This document shows positions 7,974 through 27,134 of a DNA stretch of 64,000 nucleotides, piece after piece; within the stretch, counting starts at the first letter, position 1; each line of letters starts with the position of its first letter. Where the stretch lies: the NCBI GenBank assembly GCA_910586445.1, contig CAJUHV010000005.1, positions 6,108-70,107 on the forward strand, read 5' to 3'. The stretch comes from an uncultured Eubacterium sp. (GTDB lineage Bacteria; Bacillota; Clostridia; Lachnospirales; Lachnospiraceae). Position numbers and translations under genes: made by a program. The notes below the pieces were generated by a model. That model was not told the DNA's origin and did not search any database. It saw nothing but the letters and a program-made list of their open reading frames with translations.

Positions 7974-8010
7974 TTAAAATGCTGCTATTTACTGCTCCTG
8001 TTTCATACTT

Positions 8011-11300: not shown

Positions 11301-11701
11301 GTACGATTTCGGCCGATCGGAAGTGAAAAAACAAACCTCTTTGAACGCTCGGGTGTCTTTCGAACCGATGTCACTACATCGACCTCACCGCTTTCCAGCA
11401 TATCAAGCATCTCATCCCAAGATTTATCGTATCCTGCATATTCAAAATTTAGATGAGAGTATTCAGACACAAGGTTCAAAAAATCAATGCCGTAGCCTTC
11501 CAGATTTCCATCCTGATCCTTCATATGATAACCGTCAAAATAAAAGATCCCCGCCTTTACTGTCTGATTGACTGGCTCTCCGGCTGCCGCTGCGGGGGAC
11601 ATGCTGCCACATACCATAATGATACATATAAGCAGTAATATAGTCCGTTTGTAATATCCTTTCGTGTGCATTGTTTCTTTTGCTTCCTCCAATTTTTTCA
11701 T
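8306..11701 (-). CDS. hybrid sensor histidine kinase (two periplasmic SBP_bac_3-like domains, TM, HisKA, HATPase_c, REC), 3' end disrupted by a frameshift
   Basis: Signal/TM N-terminus followed by two solute-binding-like repeats. H-box [17 protein letters not shown]-boxes GTGLGLAI, and a REC with DWLMPDLNG. The second REC begins ([20 protein letters not shown]) and then terminates abnormally. Confidence 0.85.
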
Positions 11702-11794
11702 CTGCTACCTTATTATATACCAGCTCAGATATAAATTCAATGCAAATCTATTTTTCAAAGCACACACTCATACAACAGCCGCAGCCGCTCTCGC

Positions 11795-14092
11795 TTATAC
11801 CATTACACGCTCCAGCCTGGCTCCCATACGGCTTAATATCTCATTTGTAATCGTTCCTGCCTGCGCAGCAATATCACAGACAGAGATTTCCATGCTGCCG
11901 GACCGGCCGATCAGTACGGCCGTATCTCCTGTCTTCACATCGCCTATCCCTGTCACATCTACAATCGTCTGATCCATGCATATGCGCCCGATCACAGGTG
12001 CCCTCTGCCCATGGATCAGGACACTTCCCACTCCTCCTGATAAGGCACGCGGCAGTCCGTCTGCATAGCCGATTGCAAGCACCGCAATCTTCATATCCCG
12101 TGCTGCCGTAAATGCCGGACCGTATCCGGCAGACTCGCCCTGATACAATACTTTTACAGCAGCAATCCTTGCCTTTAATGACAAAACAGGCTGCAGCTCT
12201 TCCTGCCACCTTACCGTATCCTCTTTTGTACTGAGCACGCCATACAGCGCAATTCCAACCCGCGCATAATCTCCTGCCAGCTCCGGGTAGTTCAGCACGC
12301 CATAGCTGGCGAGCATATGCAGCTTTGGACACGGATATCCCTGCTCCCTCAGTGCAGCGACTGTACGGCAGAACGCTTCTGCCTGCAGGCTGGTATATGC
12401 CCTGCCATACATCTGCAGCGTATCAGAGGCTGACAAATGCGTATATAAGCCGTCTACAATCAAATGCTCCAGCCCATAGACTGCCATGATCTTTTTTATA
12501 TTTTCACTCCGCTCGCCAAGGCGGTGCATACCGGTATCAATACCAATATGTACATGGATATCCACCCCGCAGCTGTTTAACTGTAAGGCATATTCGTAAT
12601 CAATCACCGTCTGCGTCAGATGATACTGGTGCAGCAGCGCACACTGATCCTTATGCGTATAGCCTAAAATTAGAATTTCACCCCGGATTCCCTGCCTGCG
12701 CAGCTGTATCCCCTCCTGCACACAGGCAACGCAGAACGAATCCACGCCCATTTTCTGCAGCTGCCCTGCGATCAAAACAGCTCCATGTCCATAGGCATCC
12801 GCCTTGACTGCCGGCATCAGCCTGCAGTCTGCGGGCAGCTTGGAGCGCAGCACCGCTACATTATGCTGCAGTGCCTCATGGTCAATCTCCAGCCACGCTC
12901 TGCCCAGGCAGAAATCCTGCGCCCTGCTTTCCTGACGTTCCTGCGCCCTGCTTTCCTGACGTTCATGTTCCCTGCTTTCCTGACGTTCCTGCGCCCTGCT
13001 CCGCCTAGATTTTTTCTGCTGTAAAAGCAGCTGTCTTTTCCTTCCGCCCACAGGCCCCTTCCATTGATCTAAAAATACTGCGATCATAAATGCAGACGCA
13101 AATGAGCATATGCATACTACGAAATAATGTACGACGCTGTTTTCCACAAGCAGATCCAGCTTCGTCACCTTTGCGGCTCCCCGCACTATGACAATCATCG
13201 CTGGGTGCAGGATATAAGTCCATGTCGCCGTCGTGCCAAGATACCGCTGCACGCCGCCAGGTCTTTTTTTACGTACTGTCCCGCGCCCGGTATTTTGAAT
13301 CAGTATTTTATATAGAAAGTACATGACCGGCACAAGCAGTATATACATGCTGTCATGACGCTGCAGCTCAAAATGCCTTAACAAAAACGCTTCTTCTGTC
13401 ATTGCTACAAATGAAACCGCAAGCCCTGCCCACAAGATACGCGCATCCGCCGCCCGCTTTTTATTTTTCGTGCCGGATGAGGCAGCTTCGCCGAGCAGCA
13501 GAAAAACAGGCGCTAAAAAAATACCATTGCGCGTATAGGAAAACAGCTGAAACGCGGCTTCGTAAAAATCTCCGACTACCGGCAGTTCTTCAACCAGCCC
13601 GTAGTAGCTGTCGCCAAACAGTCCGGCTGCATACAATACTGCTGCAAGTATCATCATCTTGTTTCGGCGCATCACGCAGCTTGCCGCATATACGATCAAT
13701 ATGCCTATGATGCAGGCCGGAAAATACCACAGATGGTAAAACGTGCCGTCAAATATAAGCATGCGGAGTACATCAGAAATTCCCAGATTTTTATACTGCC
13801 CCGCATAAATGCCGATCGGTATATATAAAATAACCGCTGCTCCATAAAGCAGTGCAATCTTTTTCACATAATTTAATACCCGCGCCATGCCGCACTCTGG
13901 AAAGGCAGACACCACAAACTGCCCTGTCACCATAAAGAAAAACGGCACTGCAATCCTGCCCAGCACCCTTGTCAGAAAAAAATCCGCATCGGCACTTAGT
14001 GACATCAGCGGCGAGGTATGAATAGCTACGACCAATGCCGCTGCAAATATCCGAAATTGTTCCAGCCTGTCAAATCGCTGTTTTTCACGCAT
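11795..14092 (-). CDS. vanT: VanT-type membrane-bound serine/alanine racemase (acyltransferase_3 membrane domain fused to a PLP alanine-racemase domain)
   Basis: About 330 aa of multi-TM acyltransferase-3-like N-terminus, a charged linker, then a racemase domain with the PLP-lysine motif PAVKADAYGHG. Located directly downstream of vanG and vanXY. Confidence 0.85.
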   Translation of the reverse strand: MREKQRFDRLEQFRIFAAALVVAIHTSPLMSLSADADFFLTRVLGRIAVPFFFMVTGQFVVSAFPECGMARVLNYVKKIALLYGAAVILYIPIGIYAGQYKNLGISDVLRMLIFDGTFYHLWYFPACIIGILIVYAASCVMRRNKMMILAAVLYAAGLFGDSYYGLVEELPVVGDFYEAAFQLFSYTRNGIFLAPVFLLLGEAASSGTKNKKRAADARILWAGLAVSFVAMTEEAFLLRHFELQRHDSMYILLVPVMYFLYKILIQNTGRGTVRKKRPGGVQRYLGTTATWTYILHPAMIVIVRGAAKVTKLDLLVENSVVHYFVVCICSFASAFMIAVFLDQWKGPVGGRKRQLLLQQKKSRRSRAQERQESREHERQESRAQERQESRAQDFCLGRAWLEIDHEALQHNVAVLRSKLPADCRLMPAVKADAYGHGAVLIAGQLQKMGVDSFCVACVQEGIQLRRQGIRGEILILGYTHKDQCALLHQYHLTQTVIDYEYALQLNSCGVDIHVHIGIDTGMHRLGERSENIKKIMAVYGLEHLIVDGLYTHLSASDTLQMYGRAYTSLQAEAFCRTVAALREQGYPCPKLHMLASYGVLNYPELAGDYARVGIALYGVLSTKEDTVRWQEELQPVLSLKARIAAVKVLYQGESAGYGPAFTAARDMKIAVLAIGYADGLPRALSGGVGSVLIHGQRAPVIGRICMDQTIVDVTGIGDVKTGDTAVLIGRSGSMEISVCDIAAQAGTITNEILSRMGARLERVMV
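12917..13000. repeat. 24-bp in-frame tandem repeat, about 3.5 copies, inside the VanT interdomain linker
   Basis: ctgcgccctgctttcctgacgttc at 12917..12940 and 12941..12964 (identical). A variant copy at 12965..12988 and a partial fourth copy. Encodes ERQESRAQ-type repeats. Confidence 0.9.
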
Positions 14093-14152
14093 ACATGTGC
14101 CTCCATTCCATGCAGCGAAAAATCTTCCGCATACAAAGCTCCCCTGCGCTGC

Positions 14153-14923
14153 TTATGCGCATTTCCATATCGTAACAATAAACCCGTCCACATTATTTCC
14201 AGAAACAGAATACTGTGTTCCGGCTTCTAAATCAAACTGCGCCTGCCCGGATTCTGTATCCGCAGATTTTAGATAAATGATATCCGCTGCACGCCCATGT
14301 CCTTCATAATGCAGAGGCTCCTGCCCATATGGGAATCCGCGCAGATACGAAATATATTCCTCCAGCGTAAAGCCATGCTCTTTGATCATGGCAGCATGCG
14401 GCGTGCCTACAAAGCGAAAGTGCCACGGTTCATGTCCTATTCCCGTAATACTTTCCCTGCCCTTTGGATACCGTTCGATAAAACCATATTCCGCTGCGTT
14501 TTCGCGGAAGATCTGGCAGAGGCCGTCATACGGAAAATCCGGCCTGATAAAATCGATCACATCCTGCTTCTTTCCAAGGTCAATCGCAAGCCCCGTCTGG
14601 TGCTCACTGTGTCCCGGCACTGCCACATAGGTCTGTGTAAACTCCTGCCCATTCTCCCTGAGTGAATCCGCCCAGATCTGCTGCTGTTCTTCCATAGAGC
14701 GCCAGCCGCTGACAGGTACGATCTGCTCCATGCCGCCTATTCTGCGAAGCAGCATAAGCAGGCTGCACGCTGCAGGTTCCTTTAATAAAACCGGCTCCGC
14801 CTCCTGCATATAAGACAGGCCAAGCGGCTGCGCTGCCTCCCACAGACCGCGATACGCATGGTCTGCATTTACTAATATCAGATTACCCTTATTTATATCC
14901 TTGTCCTCAAAATAAATCCGCAT
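14153..14923 (-). CDS. vanXY: VanXY-type D,D-dipeptidase/D,D-carboxypeptidase
   Basis: 256 aa with zinc-ligand motifs SEHQTGLAIDL and HEPWHFRFVG. Lies between a D-Ala-D-Ser ligase gene and vanT. Confidence 0.85.
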   Translation of the reverse strand: MRIYFEDKDINKGNLILVNADHAYRGLWEAAQPLGLSYMQEAEPVLLKEPAACSLLMLLRRIGGMEQIVPVSGWRSMEEQQQIWADSLRENGQEFTQTYVAVPGHSEHQTGLAIDLGKKQDVIDFIRPDFPYDGLCQIFRENAAEYGFIERYPKGRESITGIGHEPWHFRFVGTPHAAMIKEHGFTLEEYISYLRGFPYGQEPLHYEGHGRAADIIYLKSADTESGQAQFDLEAGTQYSVSGNNVDGFIVTIWKCA

Positions 14924-14965
14924 AATAATCCCACCACCAGCTTATAAAATAATTGATCTCATTTA

Positions 14966-16030
14966 TTACGGTGCCTTCACCGCCAGCCGTATGATCTGAT
15001 CTATAATCCAGCCAAAGGTATGCCCTGCTGCCTTCATCATGCCCGGATAACGGCTGTGTTCGGTAAATCCCGGAATTGTGTTGACTTCATTAAATACAAT
15101 CTCGCCCCCAGGCGTCAAAAACAGATCTACACGTGCAAAGCCGCTGCATCCAAGCGTCTGGTATATCAGCTGTGCAGCCTGTTTGACCTCATCGCTTTTA
15201 TGCGCATCAATTCTTGCAGGTACATGTATCGCCGAGGTTTTCAGCGTATATTTTTCTGTAAAATCAAAAAATCCTCCCGAGAGCTCGATCTCGTCTACCT
15301 CTCCGGTAATCAGCTGGTCATTTCCAAGCACGGCGCATCCTACCTCAAATCCGTCGATATTTTCTTCTAAAATCACCTGATCATCATACTGAAAAGCAAG
15401 CACAATCGCATTATGCAGCTGATCATGTGCTGTCACCTTTGTCACGCCAAATGACGATCCGGCTTTTACCGGCTTTACATAAAGCGGATACCCTATTTCA
15501 GCCGCAAACGCATCTGCCCTGTCATAATCATCCGCATATGCAGCACCTGATTTTATAACTACCGCCCGCGGCACGCGTATGCCCGCAGCAGCGGCAAGCC
15601 TGTGCGCACGGTCTTTATCCATGCACAGTGCAGACGCCAGCACACCGCAGCCTGCCAGCGGAATGCCTGCCAGCTCTGCGGCTCCCTGCACCGTGCCGTC
15701 TTCTCCGTTTTTTCCATGCAGTACCGGAAACACTACATCAACCGGAAGTTTTTTTACCCCGTCTTCTTCAAACAGCATAAGGCAGTGCTCGCTGCGGTTT
15801 GGTGAAAGTGCTGCCGGAGTACAGTCTGATTTATTATGCCAGGTGTTCTCCCTGATCGCCGCAGGATCTCCCTTAAAATAAAACCAGTCGCCTTCCTTTG
15901 TAATGCCGACCGGAACAGCATGATATTTTTCTGTATCCAGATTACTGATTACGGCACCTGCTGATTCTAAAGATACACTGTACTCCGAGGAATGTCCTCC
16001 AAAAATAACAGCAACATTTAATTTTTCCAT
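14966..16030 (-). CDS. vanG: VanG-type D-alanine--D-serine ligase
   Basis: 354 aa. Long collinear identity, as recalled, with enterococcal VanG (VFPVLHGKNGEDGT.QG..ELAGIP..GC..L.SALCMDKDRAH, GFEVGCAVLG, VDEIELS.GFFD.TEKYTLK.S.I..PARID, GEIVFNEVNTIPGFT.HSRYP.MM). Operon context with vanXY and vanT. Confidence 0.85.
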   Translation of the reverse strand: MEKLNVAVIFGGHSSEYSVSLESAGAVISNLDTEKYHAVPVGITKEGDWFYFKGDPAAIRENTWHNKSDCTPAALSPNRSEHCLMLFEEDGVKKLPVDVVFPVLHGKNGEDGTVQGAAELAGIPLAGCGVLASALCMDKDRAHRLAAAAGIRVPRAVVIKSGAAYADDYDRADAFAAEIGYPLYVKPVKAGSSFGVTKVTAHDQLHNAIVLAFQYDDQVILEENIDGFEVGCAVLGNDQLITGEVDEIELSGGFFDFTEKYTLKTSAIHVPARIDAHKSDEVKQAAQLIYQTLGCSGFARVDLFLTPGGEIVFNEVNTIPGFTEHSRYPGMMKAAGHTFGWIIDQIIRLAVKAP

Positions 16031-16187
16031 AATTATTAAATCCTTTCTGCTTTTATGATTTATTTTTCTTTATTAATTTGTAATTATTTATAATTTGTTT
16101 TATAGTTTGTTTGTCATTGCTTTCTACAAATGCATGCCCGTATCTTATATGTACTATTCGTATCATGTGTACTATGTACATTAATAC

Positions 16188-16216
16188 ACTATACGCCTTC
16201 ACACTTTTTTTGTCAA
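16188..16216 (-). promoter_or_regulatory. near-consensus sigmaA promoter about 150 nt upstream of vanG
   Basis: Minus strand reads TTGACA (16211..16216), 17 nt, TATAGT (16188..16193). Confidence 0.5.
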
Positions 16217-16470
16217 CTATATTTTTATGCCTTTCAAATATATCTGACCCAGACTTTATTATGGCATCATTTTCCTCTCTGAATCTATAATATTTTCCAT
16301 CAAAAACCTTACAATATTCATACTGCCCTATATTTTCCCAATTAATCCACGGCTTTCTATGATAATCACACAGAAAAGTTCTCGCCGCACGAGCTTTCTA
16401 TTGTTAGAAACCACAAAAAGCCCCCTGCCAGACAATGCCGGCACGGAGACATTTATAAATCTACATTTAA

Positions 16471-18228
16471 TTATATATTGTTAATTAAATGTACGCTGTC
16501 CAGCAGTTCCTCAATTTCCGATCCGGTCATCGTCTCGCTCTCTAACAGCTTTTCTGCTAAAACCTCTACCAGCTGATAGGAGTTTTCCAACAGCCCTGCT
16601 CCCTTATCATAAAAGATCCTGGACAGAGCCTGTACCCTGTCTGTCACTATATGGGCTGCTGCGCGCTCTTCTTCTTTCAGATACATCAGGTCTACAGGGC
16701 CGATTTTCGTATCAAAGCCGTAAGACGCCACATATCCTTTTAACAGTTTTGTTGCCTGTGTAAGGTCATTTGACGCACCTGTTGTAACGCTGCCAAACTT
16801 TATATTTTCGGAAATCTGTCCGGCATAGCACGCCATAACATCATGCTCCAGCTTATCACGCGTCACAAACTGGCTCTCTCCCTCCTGCCCGAATACCGCT
16901 CCGCCGACGCCGGAGGTCGTCCCTATCGTAGACACTCTCGAAATAGGCTCCCCGCAGAGATATTTCATAACGGCATGGCCTGCTTCATGGTATGCGACGA
17001 TTTCGCGGTCTTTTTCATGCTGCTTATTTTTCGAGCGGCTGCCTTTGAACACCTTTTTGTCAATCGCCTCTTCAATGCATTCCATATCGATTCTGCTTTT
17101 TTCCTTTGTAATCGCAATCAGGCTCGCTTCATTGCAGATCATAGAGATATCCGCTCCGGTAAATCCGCTGATTGCTTTTGCTAGCGAAGTAATCTCCAGA
17201 TCCTCTGCCACCTTATAATCTTTTAGGTAAAATTCCAGCATCTGCTTTCTGACCTTCCAGTCTCTTGGAGGATTAACGATAATCTGCCTGTCAAACCTGC
17301 CTGACCTTTTTAATGCACGGTCTAATTTATCCGGGCAGTTCGTGGCCGCAAGGACAAAGATCCCCTCTGTCGGCGTAAATCCGTCCATCTCCTTCAGCAG
17401 CTGGTTTATAATCTGTACATCCTCCGAATCAGCTTTTATGCTGCTGCGGCTGCCGCCCATCGCATCTATCTCATCAAAAAACACAATGCACGGCGTATGC
17501 CGTCTTGCAATTTTAAATACCTGCCGTACCCGTTTTGCACCGACACCTTTAAACAGCTCTGCAAATTCAGAACCGGAAATACTGATAAACGGCACTCCGG
17601 CTTCACAAGCCATCGCTTTTGCGATCAGCGTCTTGCCCGTACCCGGCTCTCCTGCCAGCAGCAGCCCTTTTGGTGCCCTGGCCCCGATCTTCCTGCCGAT
17701 CTTTGGCTCTTTGATCATCGATACATACAAATTAATGTCATCCATGATCTCGTCCAGCCCGATTACATCAGTAAAATGCACATCGCTTTTTTTCACAATG
17801 TCGCCAGCACGCAGCTTGCCGGTATTCCACTGCGAATATATGATTACTACAAACCAGACGCTTACAATTACAAGTTCTAAAATAATCACCATAAGCTCGG
17901 TTGCTGCAAGATCTGCATGTGCCTTTAAATTTACCCCGTGTTCCAGCATTTCCTTACGGAACTCCTCATATCTGGGATGGAGTGTTTTGTATCTGCTGCC
18001 GTGACTGGCAACAACTGTCATATATTCCTTATTCTGCGAATATTCGATTTCTGTGATCTCCCCTTTGTCCAGCATGGCGCGAAACCGCGTATAATCGATC
18101 TTTTCTATTTTAGAATCTGCTATATGCTTATATCCATTGATGCCCGCAAAAACAGCCATGCAGATCACGAATCCAATGATCACCAGCTTTTTGTGCTTTC
18201 CAAAAAATTCCTCAAGCTTCCCCAGCAT
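16471..18228 (-). CDS. FtsH-family ATP-dependent zinc metalloprotease paralogue (585 aa)
   Basis: Two TM segments flank an extracytoplasmic domain of about 80 aa. Walker A GEPGTGKT, Walker B IVFFDEID, SRH ATNCPDKLDRALKRSGRFD, and M41 zinc site HEAGHAV. Confidence 0.85.
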   Translation of the reverse strand: MLGKLEEFFGKHKKLVIIGFVICMAVFAGINGYKHIADSKIEKIDYTRFRAMLDKGEITEIEYSQNKEYMTVVASHGSRYKTLHPRYEEFRKEMLEHGVNLKAHADLAATELMVIILELVIVSVWFVVIIYSQWNTGKLRAGDIVKKSDVHFTDVIGLDEIMDDINLYVSMIKEPKIGRKIGARAPKGLLLAGEPGTGKTLIAKAMACEAGVPFISISGSEFAELFKGVGAKRVRQVFKIARRHTPCIVFFDEIDAMGGSRSSIKADSEDVQIINQLLKEMDGFTPTEGIFVLAATNCPDKLDRALKRSGRFDRQIIVNPPRDWKVRKQMLEFYLKDYKVAEDLEITSLAKAISGFTGADISMICNEASLIAITKEKSRIDMECIEEAIDKKVFKGSRSKNKQHEKDREIVAYHEAGHAVMKYLCGEPISRVSTIGTTSGVGGAVFGQEGESQFVTRDKLEHDVMACYAGQISENIKFGSVTTGASNDLTQATKLLKGYVASYGFDTKIGPVDLMYLKEEERAAAHIVTDRVQALSRIFYDKGAGLLENSYQLVEVLAEKLLESETMTGSEIEELLDSVHLINNI

Positions 18229-18868
18229 ATATCCTCCCCTGCTCTACTTTTACTCCATACTTTTTAAGATCCACCCTGCCCCGTACGACCGTCACTCCGT
18301 CCGCCTCCAGCAGCTGCTGTTGGACACCTTCGCCGCCAAATGCAAATGCGCCTGCCAGCTCTCCTTTGGCATTCACAATGCGGTAGCATGGAATCGTATC
18401 CGGGTCTGGATTTTTATGCAGCGCATTGCCGACTGCCCTGGCCATTTTCTTATCTCCTGCCAGCTCTGCGATCTGCCCATAAGTAGCCACCCGGCCTTTT
18501 GGTATCTTTTTGACCGCCTCATAAATCCTTTTTGACGGGCTGTCAGTTACAAGGTCATAGCTTTCCGCGATCATGCGCTGTATATCTTCTTTAGGGATTG
18601 TCCCATCCAGGATCACGGTATTCCAATGCTCTTTATTCTGATGCCAGCCTGCCGTGACAGCGGCGTAGGTACTGCGCCAGAAATCCCTCCACGCAGGATC
18701 GGCCTTTACATTCAGATGGATACAGCCGTCTTTTTCATATGTCCACAGAAAAGCCTTTCTGCTCCCCTTCACCCTGACCAGCTGCCAGTTTGGATCATGA
18801 AACGGCGCGTCCTGATAAGTGCCCGCAAACGACAGTCCATATGCCAATGCTTCTTCTCTTGTCCTCAT
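18212..18868 (-). CDS. MmcQ/YjbR-like domain fused to an MGMT (O6-alkylguanine-DNA alkyltransferase) DNA-binding/active-site domain
   Basis: The N-terminal roughly 110 aa resembles the YjbR family (AFLWTYEKDGCIHLNVKADP...WHQNKEHWNTV). The C-terminus reads GRVATYGQIAELAG...AVGNALHKNP...IPCYRIV. GAGGT RBS. Its 3' end overlaps the FtsH-like start by 17 nt. Confidence 0.7.
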   Translation of the reverse strand: MRTREEALAYGLSFAGTYQDAPFHDPNWQLVRVKGSRKAFLWTYEKDGCIHLNVKADPAWRDFWRSTYAAVTAGWHQNKEHWNTVILDGTIPKEDIQRMIAESYDLVTDSPSKRIYEAVKKIPKGRVATYGQIAELAGDKKMARAVGNALHKNPDPDTIPCYRIVNAKGELAGAFAFGGEGVQQQLLEADGVTVVRGRVDLKKYGVKVEQGRIYAGEA

Positions 18869-19000
18869 GCCCTACCTCTTAATATATGGGGCTGCCGCAC
18901 TAAGAAAGATCTATACAAGATCCAGCAGAATCCGATTTGGAATGAAATCCATACCTTGTATATGTAATCTCTGCTGCGACAGCCCCGCTTATAGTAAAAT

Positions 19001-20554
19001 TTATGGTAAAATAACGGTAAATACTATGCTTTCATCGCTGCTGTGCGCCTGTATGCTGCCGCCGTGCAGCTGTACGATCTCTTTTGCAATTGCAAGCCCG
19101 AGCCCTGACCCGCCGGTTGCCGATGTGCGTGAAGAATCTACCCGGAAAAACTGCTCAAAGATATGTGACAGCTTTTCCGGCGGGATTGTCCTGCCATGAT
19201 TGCATACACGGATACGTGTCTCCTGTTCTTCCCTCTCCATAAAAACAGAAATCTCTGTACCCGGATAACTGTAGTTTACCGCATTGCGGATTAAATTATC
19301 AAATACACGCTGCAGTTTATCAGGATCACATGAAAACATAATATCCTGCTGTATCTCCAAATGCCAGCGCAGGCTTTTTTCCGCCAGCACCGGCTCAAAC
19401 TCACTGGCAATCTGCTCAAGCATACGGCTTAAATTTATCAGCTCCATCTCCAGCGTCAGCGCCGTCAGGTTAAACCGGGTAATGTCAAAAAACTCGTTGA
19501 TCAGATCCTCCAGCCTCTCCGCCTTATCCAATGCAATATGTGTATAACGCTCTCGCAGCGGCTCTGAGATCTGCTTTTCATCCTTTAGCAGCGTCAGATA
19601 ACCGATCACGCTTGTAAGCGGTGTTTTTAGGTCATGCGCCAGATAAACAATCAGGTCATTTTTCCGCTGCTCCGCCTCCTTTGCAATGATCGCATTGCGC
19701 AGTGCCTGCTCACGCACCAGATTTAACTCATCCTGCACATTGTGCATTGCTGCCGAAAGCTCAATCGGATCATCCGACGGATGCGCCAGCTTTTTTGAAG
19801 CCGCGATCACCTCATCCAGATACCGCAGCGGCTTTGCCAGATAATAATACGTCACTCCAACTATTATAGTAATGCTTAATGTAAAAAGCACGGGAATCAA
19901 ATTGTCCCATACCATATGTATGACCGGATACAAAAATTCACTGCCATACCATATGCGCCCCTGACAGACCAGCCAGGCAATGAATACCCCGCCATACAGT
20001 ATCACGATCAAAAGCATCATTGTAAAAAGATATTGGAACAGAAGCTGCCCTGCCATAGGACTTCGCTTTCTCCGGCTGTTATCTTTACTCTCATCTGTTT
20101 TTTTGCTTTTTACAGTAGACATTTTGGAAATTATATAGTTATTTATTTTTTCGAATAATCTGTTGTCTGATCGGCTGCCTAATTTGCTGTCTGATCTGTT
20201 ACTTAATGCGCGTTCCCCGCTGCTGTCTGATCGGCTGTTCAAGCTGCTGTCGCAGCTGCCGTCCGATTGATTGTATATCTTACTATATAAATCACGATCT
20301 AATTTTATATTTGATGTATTGTATAACCTGTTATTTGAATCATGATCCGGCTTTTCTTTTGATGGATCGTATAACCTGCCGTTTGAACCGCAGTCCGGCT
20401 TTGCTTTTGATGTACTGCATAAGCTGCCAGATGAATCGTAGTCCGGCTTTGCTTTTGATGTACTGTATAAGCTGCTGTATGAATCGTGATCTGTTGTTTT
20501 ATTTGCTGCATGATCTGTGCTGCTGTTTGATTGATTGTAAAATTTGTTTTTCAA
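19001..20554 (-). CDS. vanS: VanS-like sensor histidine kinase; the listed ORF carries a 144-aa Ser/Asp/Lys-rich repeat N-terminal extension (alternative start ATG at 20122)
   Basis: Two TM helices, then H-box AHDLKTPLTSVIGYL, N-box NLIRNAVNYS, G-box GGSGLGLAIAKEIV. Upstream start options are TTG at 20554 (AAGGAG 12 nt upstream) or ATG at 20122 (no clear RBS). Adjacent to an OmpR-type regulator. Confidence 0.75.
   Translation of the reverse strand: MKNKFYNQSNSSTDHAANKTTDHDSYSSLYSTSKAKPDYDSSGSLCSTSKAKPDCGSNGRLYDPSKEKPDHDSNNRLYNTSNIKLDRDLYSKIYNQSDGSCDSSLNSRSDSSGERALSNRSDSKLGSRSDNRLFEKINNYIISKMSTVKSKKTDESKDNSRRKRSPMAGQLLFQYLFTMMLLIVILYGGVFIAWLVCQGRIWYGSEFLYPVIHMVWDNLIPVLFTLSITIIVGVTYYYLAKPLRYLDEVIAASKKLAHPSDDPIELSAAMHNVQDELNLVREQALRNAIIAKEAEQRKNDLIVYLAHDLKTPLTSVIGYLTLLKDEKQISEPLRERYTHIALDKAERLEDLINEFFDITRFNLTALTLEMELINLSRMLEQIASEFEPVLAEKSLRWHLEIQQDIMFSCDPDKLQRVFDNLIRNAVNYSYPGTEISVFMEREEQETRIRVCNHGRTIPPEKLSHIFEQFFRVDSSRTSATGGSGLGLAIAKEIVQLHGGSIQAHSSDESIVFTVILP
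20309..20500. repeat. four diverged 48-bp tandem repeats (16-codon period) in the 5' part of the vanS ORF
   Basis: Units start at 20309, 20357, 20405 and 20453, each beginning tttgatg... Encodes repeats of the type DYDSSGSLCSTSKAKP. Confidence 0.85.
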
Positions 20555-20655
20555 TTTACTGCCAGGCTCCTTTTGTGCTTACGCTACAGTCTGATTTATG
20601 ATAATGCCCGCATGAAAATGCTCTATCCAGACAGAGCTTAAAATTGATCAGGACA

Positions 20656-21348
20656 TCATACTTCAATCGTATATCCCACGCCCCACACTGTCTTAATATA
20701 TTTCGGCTTTCTGGCAGGCTCATGCATTTTTTCCCTCAGCCTTGCTATATGCGTCATAACCGTATTGTTATTGTCCAGATACTGCTCACCCCAGACTGCC
20801 TCAAACAGCTCCTCGGAAGATACGACACTGCCGCGGTGTTCGCACAGATACCAGAGAATATTAAACTCAATCGGCGTCAGCATCAGCTCCGCACCGTTCA
20901 GCGTGCATTTATGGCTGCTTTTTGAAATAAAAAGCCCTTTTAAATCATACTCTCCTATTTGCGGCTGTTCTGCAGTATTATAGCGGGTATACCTGCGCAG
21001 CTGCGATTTGACCCTTGCCATCAGCTCTAATGGCTGAAACGGTTTTGTTATATAATCATCCGCACCTAAGGTAAGGCCCATGATCTTGTCCATTCCCTCG
21101 ACTTTTGCAGTCAGCATAATAATAGGAAACAAATATTTTTCCCTTATTTTCTGACAGAGCGTAAATCCATCCATATCCGGCAGCATGACATCTAAGATTG
21201 CCAGGCTTAACTCCGTACTTTCCACACACCGCAGCGCATCCAGTGCATTATAAAATTTATAAACCTCATAGCCGTCATTTTTTAAATAAACCTCTACCAG
21301 GTCTGCAATGGCGGTCTCATCATCTACAATCAGTATTCTCTTATTCAT
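20656..21348 (-). CDS. vanR: VanR-like OmpR-family response regulator
   Basis: REC (ILIVDDE...LDVMLPDMDG...LTAK) plus a winged-helix output (LTPIEFNILWYL...IKTVWGVGY). Start set at the ATG at 21348 (MNKRIL), which follows GGAGGAG. The listed 11-codon extension has no RBS. Confidence 0.85.
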   Translation of the reverse strand: MNKRILIVDDETAIADLVEVYLKNDGYEVYKFYNALDALRCVESTELSLAILDVMLPDMDGFTLCQKIREKYLFPIIMLTAKVEGMDKIMGLTLGADDYITKPFQPLELMARVKSQLRRYTRYNTAEQPQIGEYDLKGLFISKSSHKCTLNGAELMLTPIEFNILWYLCEHRGSVVSSEELFEAVWGEQYLDNNNTVMTHIARLREKMHEPARKPKYIKTVWGVGYTIEV

Positions 21349-21379
21349 CTGCTTTTGCTCCTCCATGGCCCTTCTAACC

Positions 21380-21407
21380 ATTATATATCATATACGCCCA
21401 TTGTAAA
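21380..21407 (-). promoter_or_regulatory. candidate sigmaA promoter for vanR
   Basis: Minus strand reads TTTACA (21402..21407), 16 nt, TATAAT (21380..21385), about 30 nt upstream of the vanR ATG. Confidence 0.45.
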
Positions 21408-21476
21408 GACTGCAAATACTTTATAAAATTTTAATATTTCCAAAACCCTTGAAAAATCAACGTTTTACGCAGATTG

Positions 21477-21503
21477 TTAGCACTCATTCGAAAAGAGTGC
21501 TGA
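21477..21503. promoter_or_regulatory. CIRCE-like inverted repeat (HrcA operator) upstream of htpG
   Basis: TTAGCACTC-N9-GAGTGCTGA, compared with the consensus TTAGCACTC-N9-GAGTGCTAA (one mismatch). Confidence 0.75.
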
Positions 21504-21510
21504 TTTTCTA

Positions 21511-21539
21511 TTGACTTTTTAATTTCAGAGTATTACTAT
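21511..21539 (+). promoter_or_regulatory. candidate htpG promoter
   Basis: TTGACT (21511..21516), 17 nt, TACTAT (21534..21539), 8 bp downstream of the CIRCE element. Confidence 0.4.
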
Positions 21540-21623
21540 TTCATCTAGAGCGGGTTTGAAAAATCATTTATTGAACATAATGAAACATTTCAAAATAAAG
21601 AATAAGAAAAGGAGTGCATATTC

Positions 21624-23744
21624 ATGGATAACAAACACGGTAATCTTTCCATTAACAGTGAAAATATTTTTCCTATTATCAAAAAATGGCTTTATTCAGA
21701 CCACGATATATTCTATCGTGAATTAATTTCTAATGGATGTGATGCCATTACTAAACTGAAAAAACTCGATATGATGGGAGAATACGCCTTTCCTGCTGAC
21801 TACAAGCCGCAGATCCAGGTCACGGTAAACCCTGACGAAAAGACCCTGTCTGTAACAGATAACGGCATAGGCATGACTGCCGAGGAAGTAGAAGAATATA
21901 TAAACCAGATTGCATTTTCTGGTGCAGCTGATTTCCTTGAAAAATACAAAGACAAAGCAAATGAAGACCAGATCATCGGCCATTTCGGACTCGGCTTTTA
22001 CTCTGCATTTATGGTTGCAGATCGGGTGACAATTGATACGCTTTCTTATAAAGACGGCGCATCCGCAGTCCACTGGTCATGCGACGGCGGCACGGAGTTT
22101 GATATGGCTGACGGCACGAAAGACAGCATAGGCACAACGATCACGCTTTACTTAAACGAAGACTGCCTTGAATTTGCAAATGAATACCGCGCAAGGGAAG
22201 TCATTGAAAAATACTGTGCATTTATGCCGATTCCGATTTATTTAAACAAAGCCAATGCCGAAACAGAATACGAGACAATCGATGCTGAGGACAAGCGCGA
22301 TGACGACACAGTAATAGAAACGATCATTGAAGAAGCAAAAACCGAAGAGCAGGAAAATGAAAACGGCGAAAAAGAAGTCGTAGAGGTATCTCCGCGCAAA
22401 GAAAAATTAAAGATCGTAAAGCGCCCGGTATCTTTAAATGATACAAATCCTCTGTGGGCTAAGACGCCGAAGGACTGCACAGATGAGGAATACAAGGAGT
22501 TTTACCGCAAGGTATTCCATGATTATAAGGAGCCTTTATTCTGGATTCATTTAAACATGGATTATCCATTTAATTTAAAGGGCATTTTATATTTCCCAAA
22601 AATCAATACAGAATACGATTCCATCGAAGGCACGATCAAACTATATAACAATCAGGTATTTATCGCAGACAATATTAAAGAAGTCATTCCTGAGTTTTTA
22701 ATGCTGCTAAAAGGTGTCATCGACTGCCCTGACCTGCCGCTGAACGTATCCAGAAGTGCGCTGCAGAACGACGGCTTTGTAAAAAAGATCTCCGAATACA
22801 TTACAAAGAAAGTAGCTGACAAGCTCTCCGGCATGTGCAAGACAGAAAAAGAAACTTATGAAAAATACTGGGATGATATCAGCCCGTTTATTAAATACGG
22901 CTGCCTGAGAGACGAAAAGTTCTGTGATAAGATCAACGACTATATCTTATTTAAAAACTTAGACCACAAATATCTGACACTGCTGGAATGCCTCAAGGCT
23001 GATGAAGATGAGGCTGAAAAAACAGATGAAGATGCAGCACAAAACAACGATGAAAAAATCGAAGTAGAAAATGCCGACGGCACATCTGCAACCGGCGACG
23101 ATGCCGATGACAGCGATGAAGCTGAAAAGGATACCCGCAAGATTATCTACTATGTAACAGACGAGCAGCAGCAGAGCCAGTACATCAATATGTTTAAGGA
23201 CGAGGGGATGGATGCTGTGATCCTCGACCACAACATTGATTCTTCCTTTATCACGCAGCTGGAGCGCCGCAACGAAAAATTCAAGTTTATGCGTATTGAT
23301 GCTGATGTAACAGAATCGTTGAAAGAAGATGTGCCGGAAGAAGAATTAAAAGAAGAAACAGATGCGCTCACAGAAACCTTCCGCAAAGCGCTGGGCAATG
23401 ACAAGCTGACTGTGAAGGTAGAAAAGCTGAAAAATGAAAACATCTCCTCTGTCATTACGCTGTCCGAAGAAGGAAGACGTATGCAGGATATGATGAAAAT
23501 GTACGCTATGGGCGGCATGGGCGGTATGGACCCATCCATGTTCGGCGGGGATATTTCCCTTACGCTCAACGCAAACAATGCACTTGTAAAATACATCTTT
23601 GAACACAAAGACTCCGAGCATGTGCCGACATTCTGCCAGCAGCTGTATGACCTTGCCATGATCAGCAATCAACCGCTTACTCCAGAAGCTATGACGAAAT
23701 TTATCGCAAGAAGCAATGAAATTATGATGCTGCTTGCTAAATAA
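21624..23744 (+). CDS. htpG: molecular chaperone HtpG (Hsp90 family)
   Basis: N-terminal GHKL ATPase signature (IFYRELISNGCDAITK, DNGIGMT, IGHFGLGFYSAFMVA). 706 aa. AAGGAG RBS. Confidence 0.92.
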   Translation: MDNKHGNLSINSENIFPIIKKWLYSDHDIFYRELISNGCDAITKLKKLDMMGEYAFPADYKPQIQVTVNPDEKTLSVTDNGIGMTAEEVEEYINQIAFSGAADFLEKYKDKANEDQIIGHFGLGFYSAFMVADRVTIDTLSYKDGASAVHWSCDGGTEFDMADGTKDSIGTTITLYLNEDCLEFANEYRAREVIEKYCAFMPIPIYLNKANAETEYETIDAEDKRDDDTVIETIIEEAKTEEQENENGEKEVVEVSPRKEKLKIVKRPVSLNDTNPLWAKTPKDCTDEEYKEFYRKVFHDYKEPLFWIHLNMDYPFNLKGILYFPKINTEYDSIEGTIKLYNNQVFIADNIKEVIPEFLMLLKGVIDCPDLPLNVSRSALQNDGFVKKISEYITKKVADKLSGMCKTEKETYEKYWDDISPFIKYGCLRDEKFCDKINDYILFKNLDHKYLTLLECLKADEDEAEKTDEDAAQNNDEKIEVENADGTSATGDDADDSDEAEKDTRKIIYYVTDEQQQSQYINMFKDEGMDAVILDHNIDSSFITQLERRNEKFKFMRIDADVTESLKEDVPEEELKEETDALTETFRKALGNDKLTVKVEKLKNENISSVITLSEEGRRMQDMMKMYAMGGMGGMDPSMFGGDISLTLNANNALVKYIFEHKDSEHVPTFCQQLYDLAMISNQPLTPEAMTKFIARSNEIMMLLAK

Positions 23745-23768
23745 ACTTTTTATAACAGTATTATAAAT

Positions 23769-23814
23769 AAACCATGCTGTCTGTTTTATTTCCCAGACAG
23801 CATGGTTTTTGTTT
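23769..23814. terminator. strong intrinsic terminator between convergent htpG and the GTPase-NYN gene
   Basis: AAACCATGCTGTCTG-N10-CAGACAGCATGGTTT (15-bp perfect arms) followed by TTGTTT. Confidence 0.8.
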
Positions 23815-23835
23815 AAAGTAAAAGTCCCCGACATC

Positions 23836-26712
23836 CTAGACTTTTACACTCTTCTTCCCTTTCTTTTTCTCAAATGCCTCCGCAAACGGCATATTCATCC
23901 CCTGAGGCGGCTGTTCCAGATATTCCTTCTTTATCTTCGTATTTTCCCAGTGCACTTCCTCTTCCAGCTCCCTTGCAGACACCAGCCGGCACCCCTGCCC
24001 ATGTATAATAATCTGCTCCAGCCTGTCGGATGTCGCCACTGTCACCTTGTATTTCCTTCCATATTCATGAGAAAAACGTTCGATATACTGATCCGCTGTC
24101 TCTGCTTCTTTCGTAAATACGACATGTATGTTGTGATAATCATAATACTCCGTCTGATGCCCCACGACCCGGTAGGCATCAAACACTACAATCAGGCTGC
24201 ATTTTTTTAATGCCTGATAGTTGCACATAATATCAAGCAGGCGTCCTCTTGCCCCGTCAATATTGTCTTTTGCAAGATCACTCAGCTCTTTCCATGCAAA
24301 TATAATATTGTATCCATCTACCAGAAAATATTCCTGCTGGTTCTGCTGCTTCCTGCCAGCATCCTGCCTGTTTTTTCTGCCCTTTAAAGCTGTTTGATAA
24401 TCCTGCTCTTCCTGCGTCTTATCCCCCTGCTCTGTTTCCATCTTCTGCGCTGACAGATCCTGCCCGGCATTATCATCCCGGTTTGTGCCGCTGCCCTGCT
24501 CTTTCGTGCCGTAGGTTCTTTTTTTACGATGTGCACCGTTTTTCCTGGGCGTACTTTTGTCCCGTTTATTTGCCAGATAAGTACTGGCGATAATCTTGTC
24601 CACTTCCTCTGTGCCGATATTTACATTACGCACCGAGGCATGTTTTTTCAGCTTCTCTGCCTCTTCTAACAGGCGGGTTTCCTCCGACTTTGGAACAGAC
24701 AATGCACTTTCTAAGTGCATATAGTCTTTGACCTCATACCATTCTACCAAAAATCCTGCTCCATGCGCACAGAAAACAGACGCGGACGGATTCTCCAGAT
24801 CTGCGGATGGATCATAGCCAATGCGTGCAAGCACCTCCTGTGTATTATGGCACGGGGCATAGCCTCTAAACGTACACTGAAGCGTGCCGATTCCTTTTGT
24901 ATATTCTGTTACCTCTTTCTGGTAGCCCCGCATCGTTACTACCGGCGCACTCCCAGTCAGTACGGACATCCCGTTTTCAATCGCAGGCAGTCCAAGCCTG
25001 CCGTGCATATTTTCAATATCAGTCATCGCCCTGCCGACCATCCGCTCCGGCAGCTCCAGATAAAAGTCATAATAAGGCTCAAGCAGCACGTTCTGTGCCT
25101 GCATCAGTCCCTGCCTCACTGCACGGTAAGTAGCCTGACGGAAATCACCGCCCTCGGTATGCTTTAAATGGGCACGTCCTGTCATCAGCGTTATTTTCAT
25201 ATCCGTAAGCACAGATCCGGTAAGAACTCCCTTATGTTCCCGTTCTTTTAAATGCGTCAGAATCAGCCGCTGCCAGTTTCTGTCCAGGATATCTTCACTG
25301 CAGGCAGAAGCAAACTGCATGCCGCTGCCTTCCTCCCCCGGTTCCAGCAGCAGGTGGACTTCCGCATAATGGCGCAGCGGCTCAAAATGTCCGACGCCTT
25401 CTGCCTGATCACTGATCGTTTCTTTATATACGATATTTCCGGCGCCAAATTCTACTACAGTATCAAATCTATTCTTGATCATGCTGGCCAGTATTTCCAG
25501 CTGCACTTCTCCCATCAGCTGCACCTGAATCTCCTGCAGCTGTTCATTCCATACGATATGCAGCTGCGGTTCCTCCTCCTCCAGCTGCCGCAGCTTTGGC
25601 AGCATGACAGCGGCATCCATACCTTCCGTCAGTATGACCTGATACGTCAATACCGGCTCCAGCAGCGGCATGCCGGAATCCGGCTCTATTCCCAGCCCGT
25701 CACCGGGCTTTGTATGCGTCAGCCCTGTCACTGCACAGACTGTACCAGACGGCGCTTCATTGACCGCTTCATATTTTGCACCAGAATAAATGCGTATCTG
25801 ATTGACTTTTTCTTCCCATGTGCCTTCTCCCGTCTCTGCCGGATCATTGGCAGCAGATAAGATTTTTCCTGACAAGGCAGTGCGTACTTTTAAAACGCCC
25901 CCGGTAATTTTCATATAAGTCAGCCGGTTTCCCTGCTCGTCCCTTGCGATCTTAAATACTTTTGCGGCAAATTCTTTCGGATACTGCGGAGTCTGCATAT
26001 ACCTATAAAATCCGTCCAGAAACGCCTCTATTCCCTGCTGCTTTAATGCAGAGCCAAAAAAACATGGAAAGCACAGCCTTTCACGGATCATATTACTGAT
26101 ACATGACTGGTCTATCATCCCCTGATCCAGGTACTGTTCCATAGCCGTCTCGCTGCACATCGCAAGCGCATCATAAAATGCCTCGCTGCCCTGCTCTGTA
26201 AAATCTACGCAGCTGTCGCTTAACCGCTCTTGAAGCTGCGTCAAAAGTGCCTCTTTGTCTGTTCCGTTTTGATCCATTTTATTTATGAACAAAAAAACCG
26301 GAATCTGATACCGGTTCAATAGTCTCCACAATGTCTGTGTATGTCCCTGTATGCCGTCTGCTCCATTGATCAGTAAAACCGCATAATCCAAAACCTGCAG
26401 GGTACGTTCCATTTCTGCCGAAAAGTCTACATGCCCCGGCGTATCCAGCAGTGTAATCTTTAGATCCTTCCACTCAAACAATGCCTGCTTGGAAAATATA
26501 GTAATTCCTCTTGCACGTTCCAGCTCATATGTATCTAAAAAGGCATCCTGATTGTCTACGCGCCCCGGCTTTCGGATCTTTCCGCTTGTATACAGCATTG
26601 CCTCAGACAATGTCGTCTTTCCGGCATCTACATGTGCCAGCAGCGCAATGCTGACATGCCTTGATTTATTGGATAATTTATTTTTAGACGTATCTTCCGT
26701 CGTATCCTGCAT
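23836..26712 (-). CDS. TetM/EF-G-like translational GTPase fused through a charged linker to a C-terminal YacP/Rae1-type NYN ribonuclease domain
   Basis: G1 AHVDAGKTT, G3 DTPGH, G4 NKMD, followed by EF-G-like domains II-V. After an ~80-aa K/R/Q/E-rich linker, the last ~164 aa (about 23839..24330) read LVDGYNIIF...VVFDAY...VVFTKEAETADQYIE...VATSDRLEQ...GQG...SARELEEEV. This is collinear with B. subtilis YacP as recalled. Start set at the ATG at 26712, which follows GGAAGGGA. Confidence 0.8.
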   Translation of the reverse strand: MQDTTEDTSKNKLSNKSRHVSIALLAHVDAGKTTLSEAMLYTSGKIRKPGRVDNQDAFLDTYELERARGITIFSKQALFEWKDLKITLLDTPGHVDFSAEMERTLQVLDYAVLLINGADGIQGHTQTLWRLLNRYQIPVFLFINKMDQNGTDKEALLTQLQERLSDSCVDFTEQGSEAFYDALAMCSETAMEQYLDQGMIDQSCISNMIRERLCFPCFFGSALKQQGIEAFLDGFYRYMQTPQYPKEFAAKVFKIARDEQGNRLTYMKITGGVLKVRTALSGKILSAANDPAETGEGTWEEKVNQIRIYSGAKYEAVNEAPSGTVCAVTGLTHTKPGDGLGIEPDSGMPLLEPVLTYQVILTEGMDAAVMLPKLRQLEEEEPQLHIVWNEQLQEIQVQLMGEVQLEILASMIKNRFDTVVEFGAGNIVYKETISDQAEGVGHFEPLRHYAEVHLLLEPGEEGSGMQFASACSEDILDRNWQRLILTHLKEREHKGVLTGSVLTDMKITLMTGRAHLKHTEGGDFRQATYRAVRQGLMQAQNVLLEPYYDFYLELPERMVGRAMTDIENMHGRLGLPAIENGMSVLTGSAPVVTMRGYQKEVTEYTKGIGTLQCTFRGYAPCHNTQEVLARIGYDPSADLENPSASVFCAHGAGFLVEWYEVKDYMHLESALSVPKSEETRLLEEAEKLKKHASVRNVNIGTEEVDKIIASTYLANKRDKSTPRKNGAHRKKRTYGTKEQGSGTNRDDNAGQDLSAQKMETEQGDKTQEEQDYQTALKGRKNRQDAGRKQQNQQEYFLVDGYNIIFAWKELSDLAKDNIDGARGRLLDIMCNYQALKKCSLIVVFDAYRVVGHQTEYYDYHNIHVVFTKEAETADQYIERFSHEYGRKYKVTVATSDRLEQIIIHGQGCRLVSARELEEEVHWENTKIKKEYLEQPPQGMNMPFAEAFEKKKGKKSVKV

Positions 26713-27134
26713 AAAAATATCCCTTCCTATTCCTGTAATGTATATTATGCGCTGCGCAGTTTTGATAAATAATTCACTAATATGTGATTCTTTTGACACA
26801 ATCCCTTTATCACATACCTTTGGGCGCATTATCAAATATTTTTATGGCACTTTTACGACACCGCTTTAAATTTTCAATTTCCTACGACAATATCTTATGC
26901 CATTTTACACATCTATTCTTTTCCCTATTAATGATTTCCTCACGCAGACTCCTTTCCAAAAGAGCCTGATATGGTTTTAATTTACCACATACATGCTCAA
27001 TTTGCAACAATTGACATCTGGATCGAATAAATTCATATGCAGCTGAGCTGTCAGATCTCAATGTTTTGCGATATGTACTTCTCAAACCCTTGTATATAAG
27101 GTGTCAATTAAAATGATACAACATCAATATCTCT

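Follow-up and report, generated by a model that had tools for sequence, protein, structure and literature searches.

In the genome of a mouse-gut bacterium, an uncultured Eubacterium sp. of the Lachnospiraceae (G000), two genes lie inside a vanG-type cluster, between vanS and vanG. The window, i.e. the whole stretch of DNA that was analysed, is 64,000 nucleotides (nt) long and belongs to a 162-contig assembly with 3.46% contamination. Along the minus strand the gene order is vanR, vanS, a gene for a YjbR-alkyltransferase-type fusion protein, a gene for an FtsH-like protein, vanG, vanXY and vanT (Table 1). We think it probable, though not beyond dispute, that the locus is a species-level mosaic, in which insertion placed an FtsH xenolog of a mobile clade at the 3' end of the fusion gene, where read-through from the vanRS operon transcribes it, and that the two genes do not constitute a van accessory module.

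According to this explanation the ancestral layout of the genus would be vanR-vanS and then vanG-vanXY-vanT. In the lineage that comprises this species and its sister G015 a fusion gene widespread in Lachnospiraceae would have come to lie directly behind vanS; its product would combine a YjbR double-wing DNA-binding domain with an alkyltransferase-like, lesion-binding domain carrying a PCYR motif. In this species only, an accessory FtsH gene would have been joined onto the last ~10 codons of the fusion gene, creating an overlap of 17 nt between the two coding regions. Both genes would form the tail of the regulatory operon and owe their transcription to read-through from the vanR/vanS promoter, and the transcript would terminate at a hairpin that precedes vanG's own promoter. 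The FtsH-like product would be an active, membrane-anchored, ATP-dependent zinc protease with a narrow substrate range, as for other FtsH xenologs, and would have no dedicated role in glycopeptide resistance.

The arrangement itself had been described in an earlier, sequence-only reading of this DNA, and its open reading frames (ORFs), domains, motifs and 17-nt overlap were all confirmed. Fragmentation and contamination of the metagenome-assembled genome would be in line with a chimera, in which the FtsH-like gene was misjoined into the van locus; we give this a negligible probability. In a DNA run of another study (X14), which is not among the runs flagged as possible source of this DNA, one contig (15982-18312) extends from the 5' end of vanG across the gap and the complete FtsH-like gene into the 3' end of the fusion gene, and a second one spans 18789-21700. 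Since these contigs bridge both sides, a misjoin is practically ruled out. In addition, contigs of RNA libraries bridge the vanS-fusion and fusion-FtsH junctions, and the 3.2-kb segment that links the 3' end of vanS with the 5' end of vanG was represented by 94-100% of its sampled words in DNA runs from the mouse gut belonging to 7 studies (of the 14 DNA rows, 11 were flagged as possible sources of this DNA and were not counted as independent), and partly in 6 RNA runs of 5 studies. An apparent joint of 17701 to 21543, present in all four runs, was rejected; its shorter side has only 20 letters and it was ascribed to another organism's FtsH.

Distribution of the two inserted genes

When the thresholds were strict enough to leave out housekeeping FtsH (E<=1e-120 or 1e-112), no member of the FtsH-like clade defined below was detected in the 21 other species of the genus, which leaves G000 the only carrier among 22. 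It was also the only one in the samples taken from the family (1/401; 400 genera), the order (1/401) and the class (1/399). vanG, on the other hand, exceeded its cut-off score in all but one of the 21 other species.

The van loci were compared using 28 loci from 25 other genomes. In 8 of them vanS and vanG were found on one stretch, with spacings of 210-1810 nt, and neither inserted protein was matched there (E<=1e-20), nor was either matched in the 27 vanG-bearing loci of the 25 genomes. Two relatives, G012 and G007, have a contiguous vanR-vanS-vanG-vanXY-vanT order with gaps of 285 and 531 nt, respectively. The only match to the fusion protein among the 28 van loci came from a separate vanRS locus of G015, which is without vanG. 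The insert thus appears to be specific to this species in the case of the FtsH-like gene, and to this species and G015 in the case of the fusion gene. Neither gene shows the recurrent co-occurrence with van ligase clusters that is characteristic of accessory genes like vanW, vanY and vanZ.

The fusion gene belongs to a large family: it has at least 8000 close relatives, and the 120 matches listed have identities of 81% or more and, for the most part, lengths of 206-208 amino acids (aa). Such fusions of YjbR with a PCYR-containing alkyltransferase-like domain are very common in Lachnospiraceae and biochemically uncharacterised. Among 40 relatives of G000 five have full-length orthologues (G015, 84%; G012, 81%; G013, 78%; G023, 74%; G022, 68% identity), and 10 further genomes match the YjbR half only. 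None of the five orthologues has an FtsH-like neighbour, and in four of the five loci (G012, G013, G023 and G022) there is no van gene within ~10 kb. In G012 and G013 the fusion gene has unrelated neighbours (transglycosylase, ROK and ABC genes; chemotaxis receptor and DUF1015). The only syntenic locus is that of G015, where HtpG (93% aa identity), vanR (87%), vanS (69%) and the fusion gene (84%) are shared, the vanS-fusion gap is 30 nt, and the fusion gene is followed by a different hybrid kinase and then by a solute-binding protein. The vanG gene of G015 is on another contig (L273, G015:C228), which ends 85 nt upstream of vanG in Illumina adapter letters (last ~32 bases); because of this assembly artefact the position of vanG relative to vanRS is hidden in G015.

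The sequence-only reading had offered two explanations for the gene pair, an unrelated insertion or an envelope-stress or proteolysis module coupled to the van system. Comparative genomics favours the former, as shown by the lack of the clade in the 21 species, the unrelated loci of the fusion gene in 4 of 5 cases, and the phage, plasmid and island contexts described below; the same searches, with no van genes near the relatives, lend no support to the latter. The vanG-like loci of relatives do not carry the two genes (none of the 8 vanS-vanG loci). Away from van genes the two genes occur singly, in the loci and contexts just mentioned, and were not found as a pair. They therefore do not appear to form a conserved pair and appear not to be van-linked elsewhere.

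The FtsH-like protein and its clade

All Pfam domains expected of an FtsH-type protease were recognised above their cut-offs: FtsH_ext (30.2 bits, cut-off 25.5), AAA (139.2), AAA_lid_3 (41.5) and Peptidase_M41 (111.3). The translation contains GEPGTGKT, VFFDEID, ATNCPDKLDRALKRSGRFDR and YHEAGHAV, among them what we take to be the Walker A/B motifs and the second region of homology. The nucleotide-binding motifs GEPGTGKT and VFFDEID, the arginine-rich RSGRFDR, the pore-loop motif LFKG with its aromatic residue and the HEXXH zinc site HEAGH align with Thermotoga maritima FtsH (7tdo) and are invariant or nearly so in 20 clade members. There are two hydrophobic stretches, at about residues 15-31 and 108-131.

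The protein is distinct from housekeeping FtsH. It scored 447.8 bits with the housekeeping equivalog model TIGR01241 (cut-off 600) and 328.9 with the Escherichia coli-type model NF008004 (cut-off 1008). Its own genome has three M41 genes, two canonical ones (224.7 and 218.9 bits) and the FtsH-like gene (113.5 bits), whose product is 37-40% identical to the housekeeping copies. The best matches in the 40 relatives, at up to 46% identity, are their housekeeping FtsH copies. A collection of protein clusters (5.8 billion) yielded two relatives at 83% identity and one at 61%, followed by a group of 570-610-aa proteins at 45-56%. In a tree of 39 sequences, made with a quick IQ-TREE search (a careful search was unfinished), the FtsH-like set was split from both housekeeping clades with a Shimodaira-Hasegawa-like approximate likelihood ratio test (SH-aLRT) value of 100. 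It comprised the window protein, the copy on plasmid pCY360 of Butyrivibrio proteoclasticus and four metagenome loci (L184-L187). The window protein and all eight other clade members inspected have the signature [ST][SG]GVGG exactly 20 residues after HExGHA, which is present in neither canonical copy of the genome. We define the accessory FtsH clade by its separation from housekeeping FtsH together with this signature.

Other database searches were less informative. PHROGs gave a match to phrog_30773; PADLOC returned only generic AAA matches (IetA, 130.6 bits; TRIP13) and indicated no defence system; a contig search by protein picked up AAA proteins, archaeal ones among them (34-46%), through the generic peptide FFDEIDAM alone, and contributed nothing on the clade; a look-up of homologue clusters (10 homologues) produced a single name, "AAA family ATPase, Eubacteriales bacterium".

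The genomic surroundings of clade members were seen in eight cases, a small and non-random sample; an alignment-based scan of metagenomes had found 4 clade members among the best 80 of at least 598 stretches. On the 361-kb megaplasmid pCY360 the gene lies among hypothetical, PIN and macro-domain genes. On a 172-kb metagenome contig it is followed by a tyrosine integrase and then by the core genes panE and recA, and on another one it is accompanied by DUF2201 and a secretion-type ATPase. In two further loci (L186:5732-11380 and L187:5657-11338) the FtsH gene stands after two tandem UvrD-like superfamily 1 helicases of ~630 aa each, and before Spo0A_C-like, Macro and Fic genes; this gene set looks like a conserved island, possibly of a defence type. 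Three IMG/VR contigs (290, 394 and 145 kb) also carry clade members. In two of the three, phage-type topoisomerase II, RNase H, guanylate kinase or an Ig-domain structural protein is adjacent, and the G+C content is 28-32%. The 290-kb (L274) and 394-kb (L276) contigs, which are jumbo-phage-like and have a 1727-aa Ig-domain protein, encode full-length members with 45-46% identity (match at 8001-9800). The 160 loci retrieved from metagenomes and viruses yielded neither a van gene nor a YjbR/MGMT gene, and the eight clade contexts likewise contained none.

These contexts point one way, to a putative mobile-element lineage of FtsH, and suggest that mobile elements bring their own, predicted membrane protease. 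The clade is sporadic in genomes and recurs on jumbo-phage-like contigs, a megaplasmid and islands, with all catalytic motifs kept. In our opinion this mobile FtsH protease clade is the part of the work most worth following.

Junction and transcription of the locus

The homology between the DNA of G000 and G015 stops at 18245, ~10 codons before the stop codon of the fusion gene, and in the protein alignment the conserved part extends to ...KYG, leaving unconserved the last 12 residues, whose codons overlap the start of the FtsH-like gene. For these two reasons the overlap would best be read as a junction scar, a by-product of the insertion, which may still couple translation. The ATG start of the FtsH-like gene is backed by the aligned N-termini of 19 relatives, and there is a GGAGG 4-5 nt upstream of it. 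The sequence-only reading had called the two genes translationally coupled; the overlap was borne out, whereas the coupling had been deduced from this overlap, which falls in the unconserved C-terminal tail. On the vanG side the boundary of the insertion could not be mapped, as in intergenic comparisons with G012, G007 and G015 mainly the coding edges align.

The overlap could also be taken as a sign that the two genes are a module of their own, in which a lesion-sensing protein or suicide alkyl acceptor is translationally coupled to a protease removing it or its partners. Alkylated MGMT transferases are dead-end proteins that need removal, and the conserved Cys of the invariant PCYR motif could accept an alkyl group; the 17-nt overlap with its Shine-Dalgarno-like GGAGG would suit such an arrangement. 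We nevertheless consider it very improbable: the five other full-length fusion orthologues have no FtsH-like neighbour, the eight other FtsH-clade contexts have no YjbR or MGMT gene, and the overlap is in the unconserved tail.

Promoter and terminator calls are pattern matches only. A strong promoter-like site was found before vanR and another before vanG, and the consensus scan revealed none with at least 10/12 matches between vanS and the fusion gene. The 440-nt, A+T-rich gap between the FtsH-like gene and vanG contains a terminator-like hairpin, 78 nt after the FtsH-like stop codon, in addition to the vanG promoter-like site, at which a 51-nt stretch is 74.5% identical to the vanS-vanG spacer of G007. 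Just downstream of this site there is an 11-nt direct repeat in two copies 18 nt apart (16147-16175, minus strand), which could be part of an operator or leader. A contig from an RNA library (X15), which differs from the window in 29 other letters, runs from the interior of vanS (19158) through the fusion gene to 16680 in the FtsH-like gene (coverage 16680-18881 and 18987-19158), and a second one (X18; 18164-18820) crosses the overlap. These contigs fit a putative vanR-vanS-fusion-FtsH-like transcript. Scarce or missing RNA cover at 16042-16375 (X18, X16) and a higher word depth of vanG-vanT contigs relative to those of vanRS, the fusion gene and the FtsH-like gene were not counted as evidence for a separate unit, as there are adapter letters at the contig ends and depth cannot rank genes.

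Most of the 132-nt spacer between vanS and the fusion gene is taken up by a ~100-nt dispersed repeat with terminal inverted repeats. The genome has 15 other near-full-length copies with 78-90% identity, plus weaker or partial ones (e.g. loci L265-L271), and the RNA fold of the repeat is -45.8 kcal/mol (z -4.77). In another strain, represented by the X15 contig, 15 other letters stand in place of the 105-nt repeat. Its presence is thus strain-dependent, a behaviour resembling that of miniature inverted-repeat transposable elements (MITEs) or repetitive extragenic palindromic (REP) sequences. The region in which the sequence-only reading had proposed to look for VanR boxes (18869-19000) consists mostly of this repeat. 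The upstream region of vanG shares no 12-mer (with up to 1 mismatch) with the upstream region of vanR or with the vanS-fusion spacer; three A/T-rich matches between the vanG upstream region and the vanR-vanS spacer were disregarded as chance-like.

A recruited accessory of the van regulon, i.e. a protease cotranscribed with vanRS that, once the system is switched on, adjusts the level of a membrane protein of the pathway (VanS, VanT or a housekeeping cell-wall enzyme), seems to us unlikely, though it is the most serious of the alternatives. The two genes are in the cluster and on the same strand, no strong promoter-like site separates them from vanS, an RNA-library contig spans vanS, the fusion gene and the FtsH-like gene, and the arrangement occurs in many independent mouse-gut samples. 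FtsH degrades membrane proteins, VanS and VanT are membrane proteins, and the catalytic motifs of the FtsH-like protein are intact. This proposal has to be set against the 21 other species of the genus, 20 of them with vanG, in which no clade member was found, against the lack of van genes near any other clade member seen, and against the lack of a common 12-mer upstream of vanG and in the two regions compared with it. Since the genes appear to be cotranscribed with vanRS, a van-coupled role retains some probability. A bolder version has, we feel, a slim chance: an FtsH from a mobile lineage (jumbo phages, plasmids, islands) may have been captured as the last gene of the vanRS operon and may now be a regulated protease that tunes VanS, VanT or cell-wall enzymes under glycopeptide stress, and the SGVGG clade may constitute a family of mobile-element proteases, in Firmicutes and their large phages, that has not been described before. 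If true, the captured, regulated FtsH would be a new type of van accessory function.

Fusions of MmcQ/YjbR to EVE, a modified-base-binding domain, were described as often lying near histidine kinases or response regulators and bordering hypervariable regions with mobile cargo (PMC7641849). By analogy, the YjbR fusion gene might mark an integration hotspot beside a two-component system, with the FtsH-like gene as cargo that landed there. The suggestive parallel with those fusions is a YjbR fusion to a damaged-base-binding domain located after vanRS; moreover the content downstream of the fusion gene differs between G000 and G015, and the dispersed repeat was inserted on its other side. We are doubtful about this proposal, and would place it below the accessory role: the variability of the site comes from one comparison only (G000 vs. 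G015), four of the five orthologous loci have no vanR/vanS-type gene near the fusion gene (G013 has a weak generic kinase match ~9 kb off), and the annotated ORFs from 8306 to 26835 include no transposase or integrase (Pfam, NCBIfam). The hotspot proposal is compatible with, and not opposed to, the insertion explanation.

It must be noted that several points weigh against the mosaic explanation that we prefer. The direction of the event could be either gain here or loss in G015. The family, order and class searches scored three candidates per genome in sampled genomes, thus not found does not mean absent. RNA contigs are no proof that the genes share one transcript, and RNA libraries may contain contaminating DNA. 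A good ribosome-binding site together with so tight an overlap is in keeping with co-expression with vanRS, which would put the protease under the van regulators whatever its origin, and the stability of the arrangement across many samples suggests that it was kept rather than transient. The closest homologues (83% and 61%) are known only as Logan proteins, and the eight contexts seen do not include theirs. Finally, the G+C content of the FtsH-like gene (0.465; 0.517 at third codon positions) is the same as that of its neighbours, so it bears no compositional mark of recent foreign origin; because of this the capture would be old, or the donor would have had a similar composition. With regard to resistance surveillance, vanG-type clusters of gut commensals can carry passenger genes, and therefore position in a van cluster is weak evidence of a role in resistance.

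The van genes, neighbouring genes and comparison with known systems

Of the five Van proteins VanR, VanS, VanG and VanT scored above the NCBIfam cut-offs, whereas VanXY remained below them (206 vs. 250 and 236.7 vs. 500). The true start of vanR is probably ~11 codons inside the listed ORF. The listed vanS ORF (517 aa, TTG start) reaches 20554 and is over-long: the alignments with VanS of relatives begin only at residue ~144 (144-157), and a 48-nt tandem repeat with a low-complexity translation makes up its first ~140 codons. For these reasons vanS most likely starts near 20119, at Met146 of the listed ORF. The vanR-vanS spacer is unusually long (~536 nt), and the repeat adds ~145 spurious codons to the vanS frame. 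In one RNA-library contig 2 nt are deleted at 20132, immediately before the likely start.

Table 1. Coordinates of the genes and candidate signals of the locus in the window
Feature	Position	Strand	Basis
vanR, OmpR-type response regulator	20656..21381	-	NCBIfam vanR_ACDEGLN 398.7 bits (cut-off 350), match from residue 16
vanS sensor kinase (most likely start)	19001..20119	-	NCBIfam HK_VanS 409.9 bits (cut-off 400) on residues 228-517 of listed ORF
YjbR/MmcQ fused to alkyltransferase-type domain (MGMT C-terminal, alkyltransferase-like), 218 aa, ATG	18212..18868	-	Pfam
Accessory FtsH-like membrane AAA+ zinc protease (predicted), 585 aa, ATG	16471..18228	-	Pfam, NCBIfam
Overlap of fusion stop region and FtsH-like start, 17 nt	18212..18228	-	ORF coordinates
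vanG, D-Ala-D-Ser ligase	14966..16030	-	NCBIfam NF000091 547.5 bits (cut-off 495)
vanXY-type D,D-peptidase	14153..14923	-	Pfam VanY 106.3 bits; NCBIfam vanXY 206 (cut-off 250)
vanT, membrane-bound serine racemase	11795..14092	-	Acyl_transf_3 and alanine racemase domains; catalytic part NF033131 554.7 bits (cut-off 460)
Promoter-like TTTACA-16-TATAAT before vanR	21407..21380	-	Consensus scan
Promoter-like TTGACA-17-TATAGT before vanG	16188..16216	-	11/12 consensus matches
Terminator-like hairpin after FtsH-like stop	16381..16393	-	Consensus scan only
48-nt tandem repeat in vanR-vanS spacer, 3.8 copies, 79% matches	20310..20491		Tandem Repeats Finder score 203
~100-nt dispersed repeat between vanS and fusion gene	18882..18986		

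HtpG is divergent and upstream of vanR. Directly downstream of vanT, at 8306-11701 (minus strand), there is a gene for a 1131-aa hybrid histidine kinase with two periplasmic SBP_bac_3 domains and a receiver; it has a paralogue (67% similar) at ~44243-45768. A 999-aa ORF at 23836-26835 (minus strand) combines a GTPase of the EF-G/ribosomal-protection type with a C-terminal YacP-like NYN nuclease domain. The tet_protect model scored 411 bits on it, under the cut-off of 775, and the ORF either represents an uncommon gene fusion or results from two genes being read as one from a TTG start.

The vanG operons of Enterococcus faecalis and Clostridioides difficile share with the present locus the vanR-vanS genes and a vanG-vanXY-vanT block with its own promoter (a putative one here). 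Their accessory genes include vanU, vanY and vanW, which differ from the genes found here. A full-text search pairing FtsH with vanG gave no FtsH in a vanG cluster among its best matches, and in a search of the literature on vanG clusters in Lachnospiraceae this arrangement was not found among the papers listed.

It is interesting to compare the fusion protein with alkyltransferases and alkyltransferase-like proteins (ATLs). Its N-terminal half matches the full length of the YjbR model (PF04237, residues 12-106, model 1-88/88; 92.9 bits, cut-off 30.1), with PDB matches 2fki (YjbR) and 2a1v, and its C-terminal half (residues 112-192) matches DNA_binding_1, the C-terminal domain of MGMT (PF01035, 98.1 bits). 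The superfamily model TIGR00589 scored 62.3 (cut-off 46.4), whereas the equivalog alkyltransferase models were far under their cut-offs. The solved structures nearest to the C-terminal half are the ATLs of Vibrio parahaemolyticus (2kif, 55.7 bits) and Schizosaccharomyces pombe (Atl1, 3gva, 50.7 bits), followed by human MGMT. O6-alkylguanine-DNA alkyltransferases (Ogt, Ada-C, MGMT) have PCHR, and Ogt/MGMT also an N-terminal AGT domain; the fusion protein has the C-terminal domain only, and PCYR, in which Tyr replaces the His of the transferases. The likeness to ATLs lies in the C-terminal DNA-binding, base-flipping domain and in the best sequence matches; the ATLs have Trp at the active site (PWFR, PWHR), whereas here the Cys is not replaced, and the fusion to YjbR is a further difference. 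Since PCYR is invariant in 12 of 12 aligned orthologues and departs from both groups, the fusion protein would be neither a canonical transferase nor a canonical ATL, and both alkyl transfer and lesion binding alone are possible.

The likeness to the MmcQ/YjbR-EVE proteins (PMC7641849) consists in the combination of YjbR with an altered-base domain, in the location beside a kinase and a regulator, and in the bordering variable region. The partner domain is of the MGMT/ATL type here instead of EVE, and the linkage to a kinase is present in 2 of the 6 genomes with the fusion.

The closest known kinds to the FtsH-like protein are the FtsH xenologs on mobile islands (10.1101/2023.06.19.545564) and phage-borne FtsH (PMC6892783). 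As in the present case, the island xenologs are extra, horizontally spread FtsH proteins beside housekeeping copies, with full AAA and HEXXH motifs, and they are said there to have a narrower substrate range. The stretch from helix 2 to the AAA domain, a region singled out in that preprint, is several residues shorter in our protein than in T. maritima FtsH, as judged from the alignment. The differences are that our protein belongs to a different phylum and clade (Firmicutes and their phages) and is located in a vanG cluster with no genes of a heat-resistance island nearby. The Pseudomonas phage matches to the window protein are less than 60% identical (~33.5% for one listed), hence they are not of the same clade. 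An FtsH-like protein is reported for the Pseudomonas jumbo phage MIJ3 (PMC6892783), and the likeness is that FtsH homologues occur on jumbo phage genomes; in the present clade three members lie on IMG/VR contigs of 145-394 kb.

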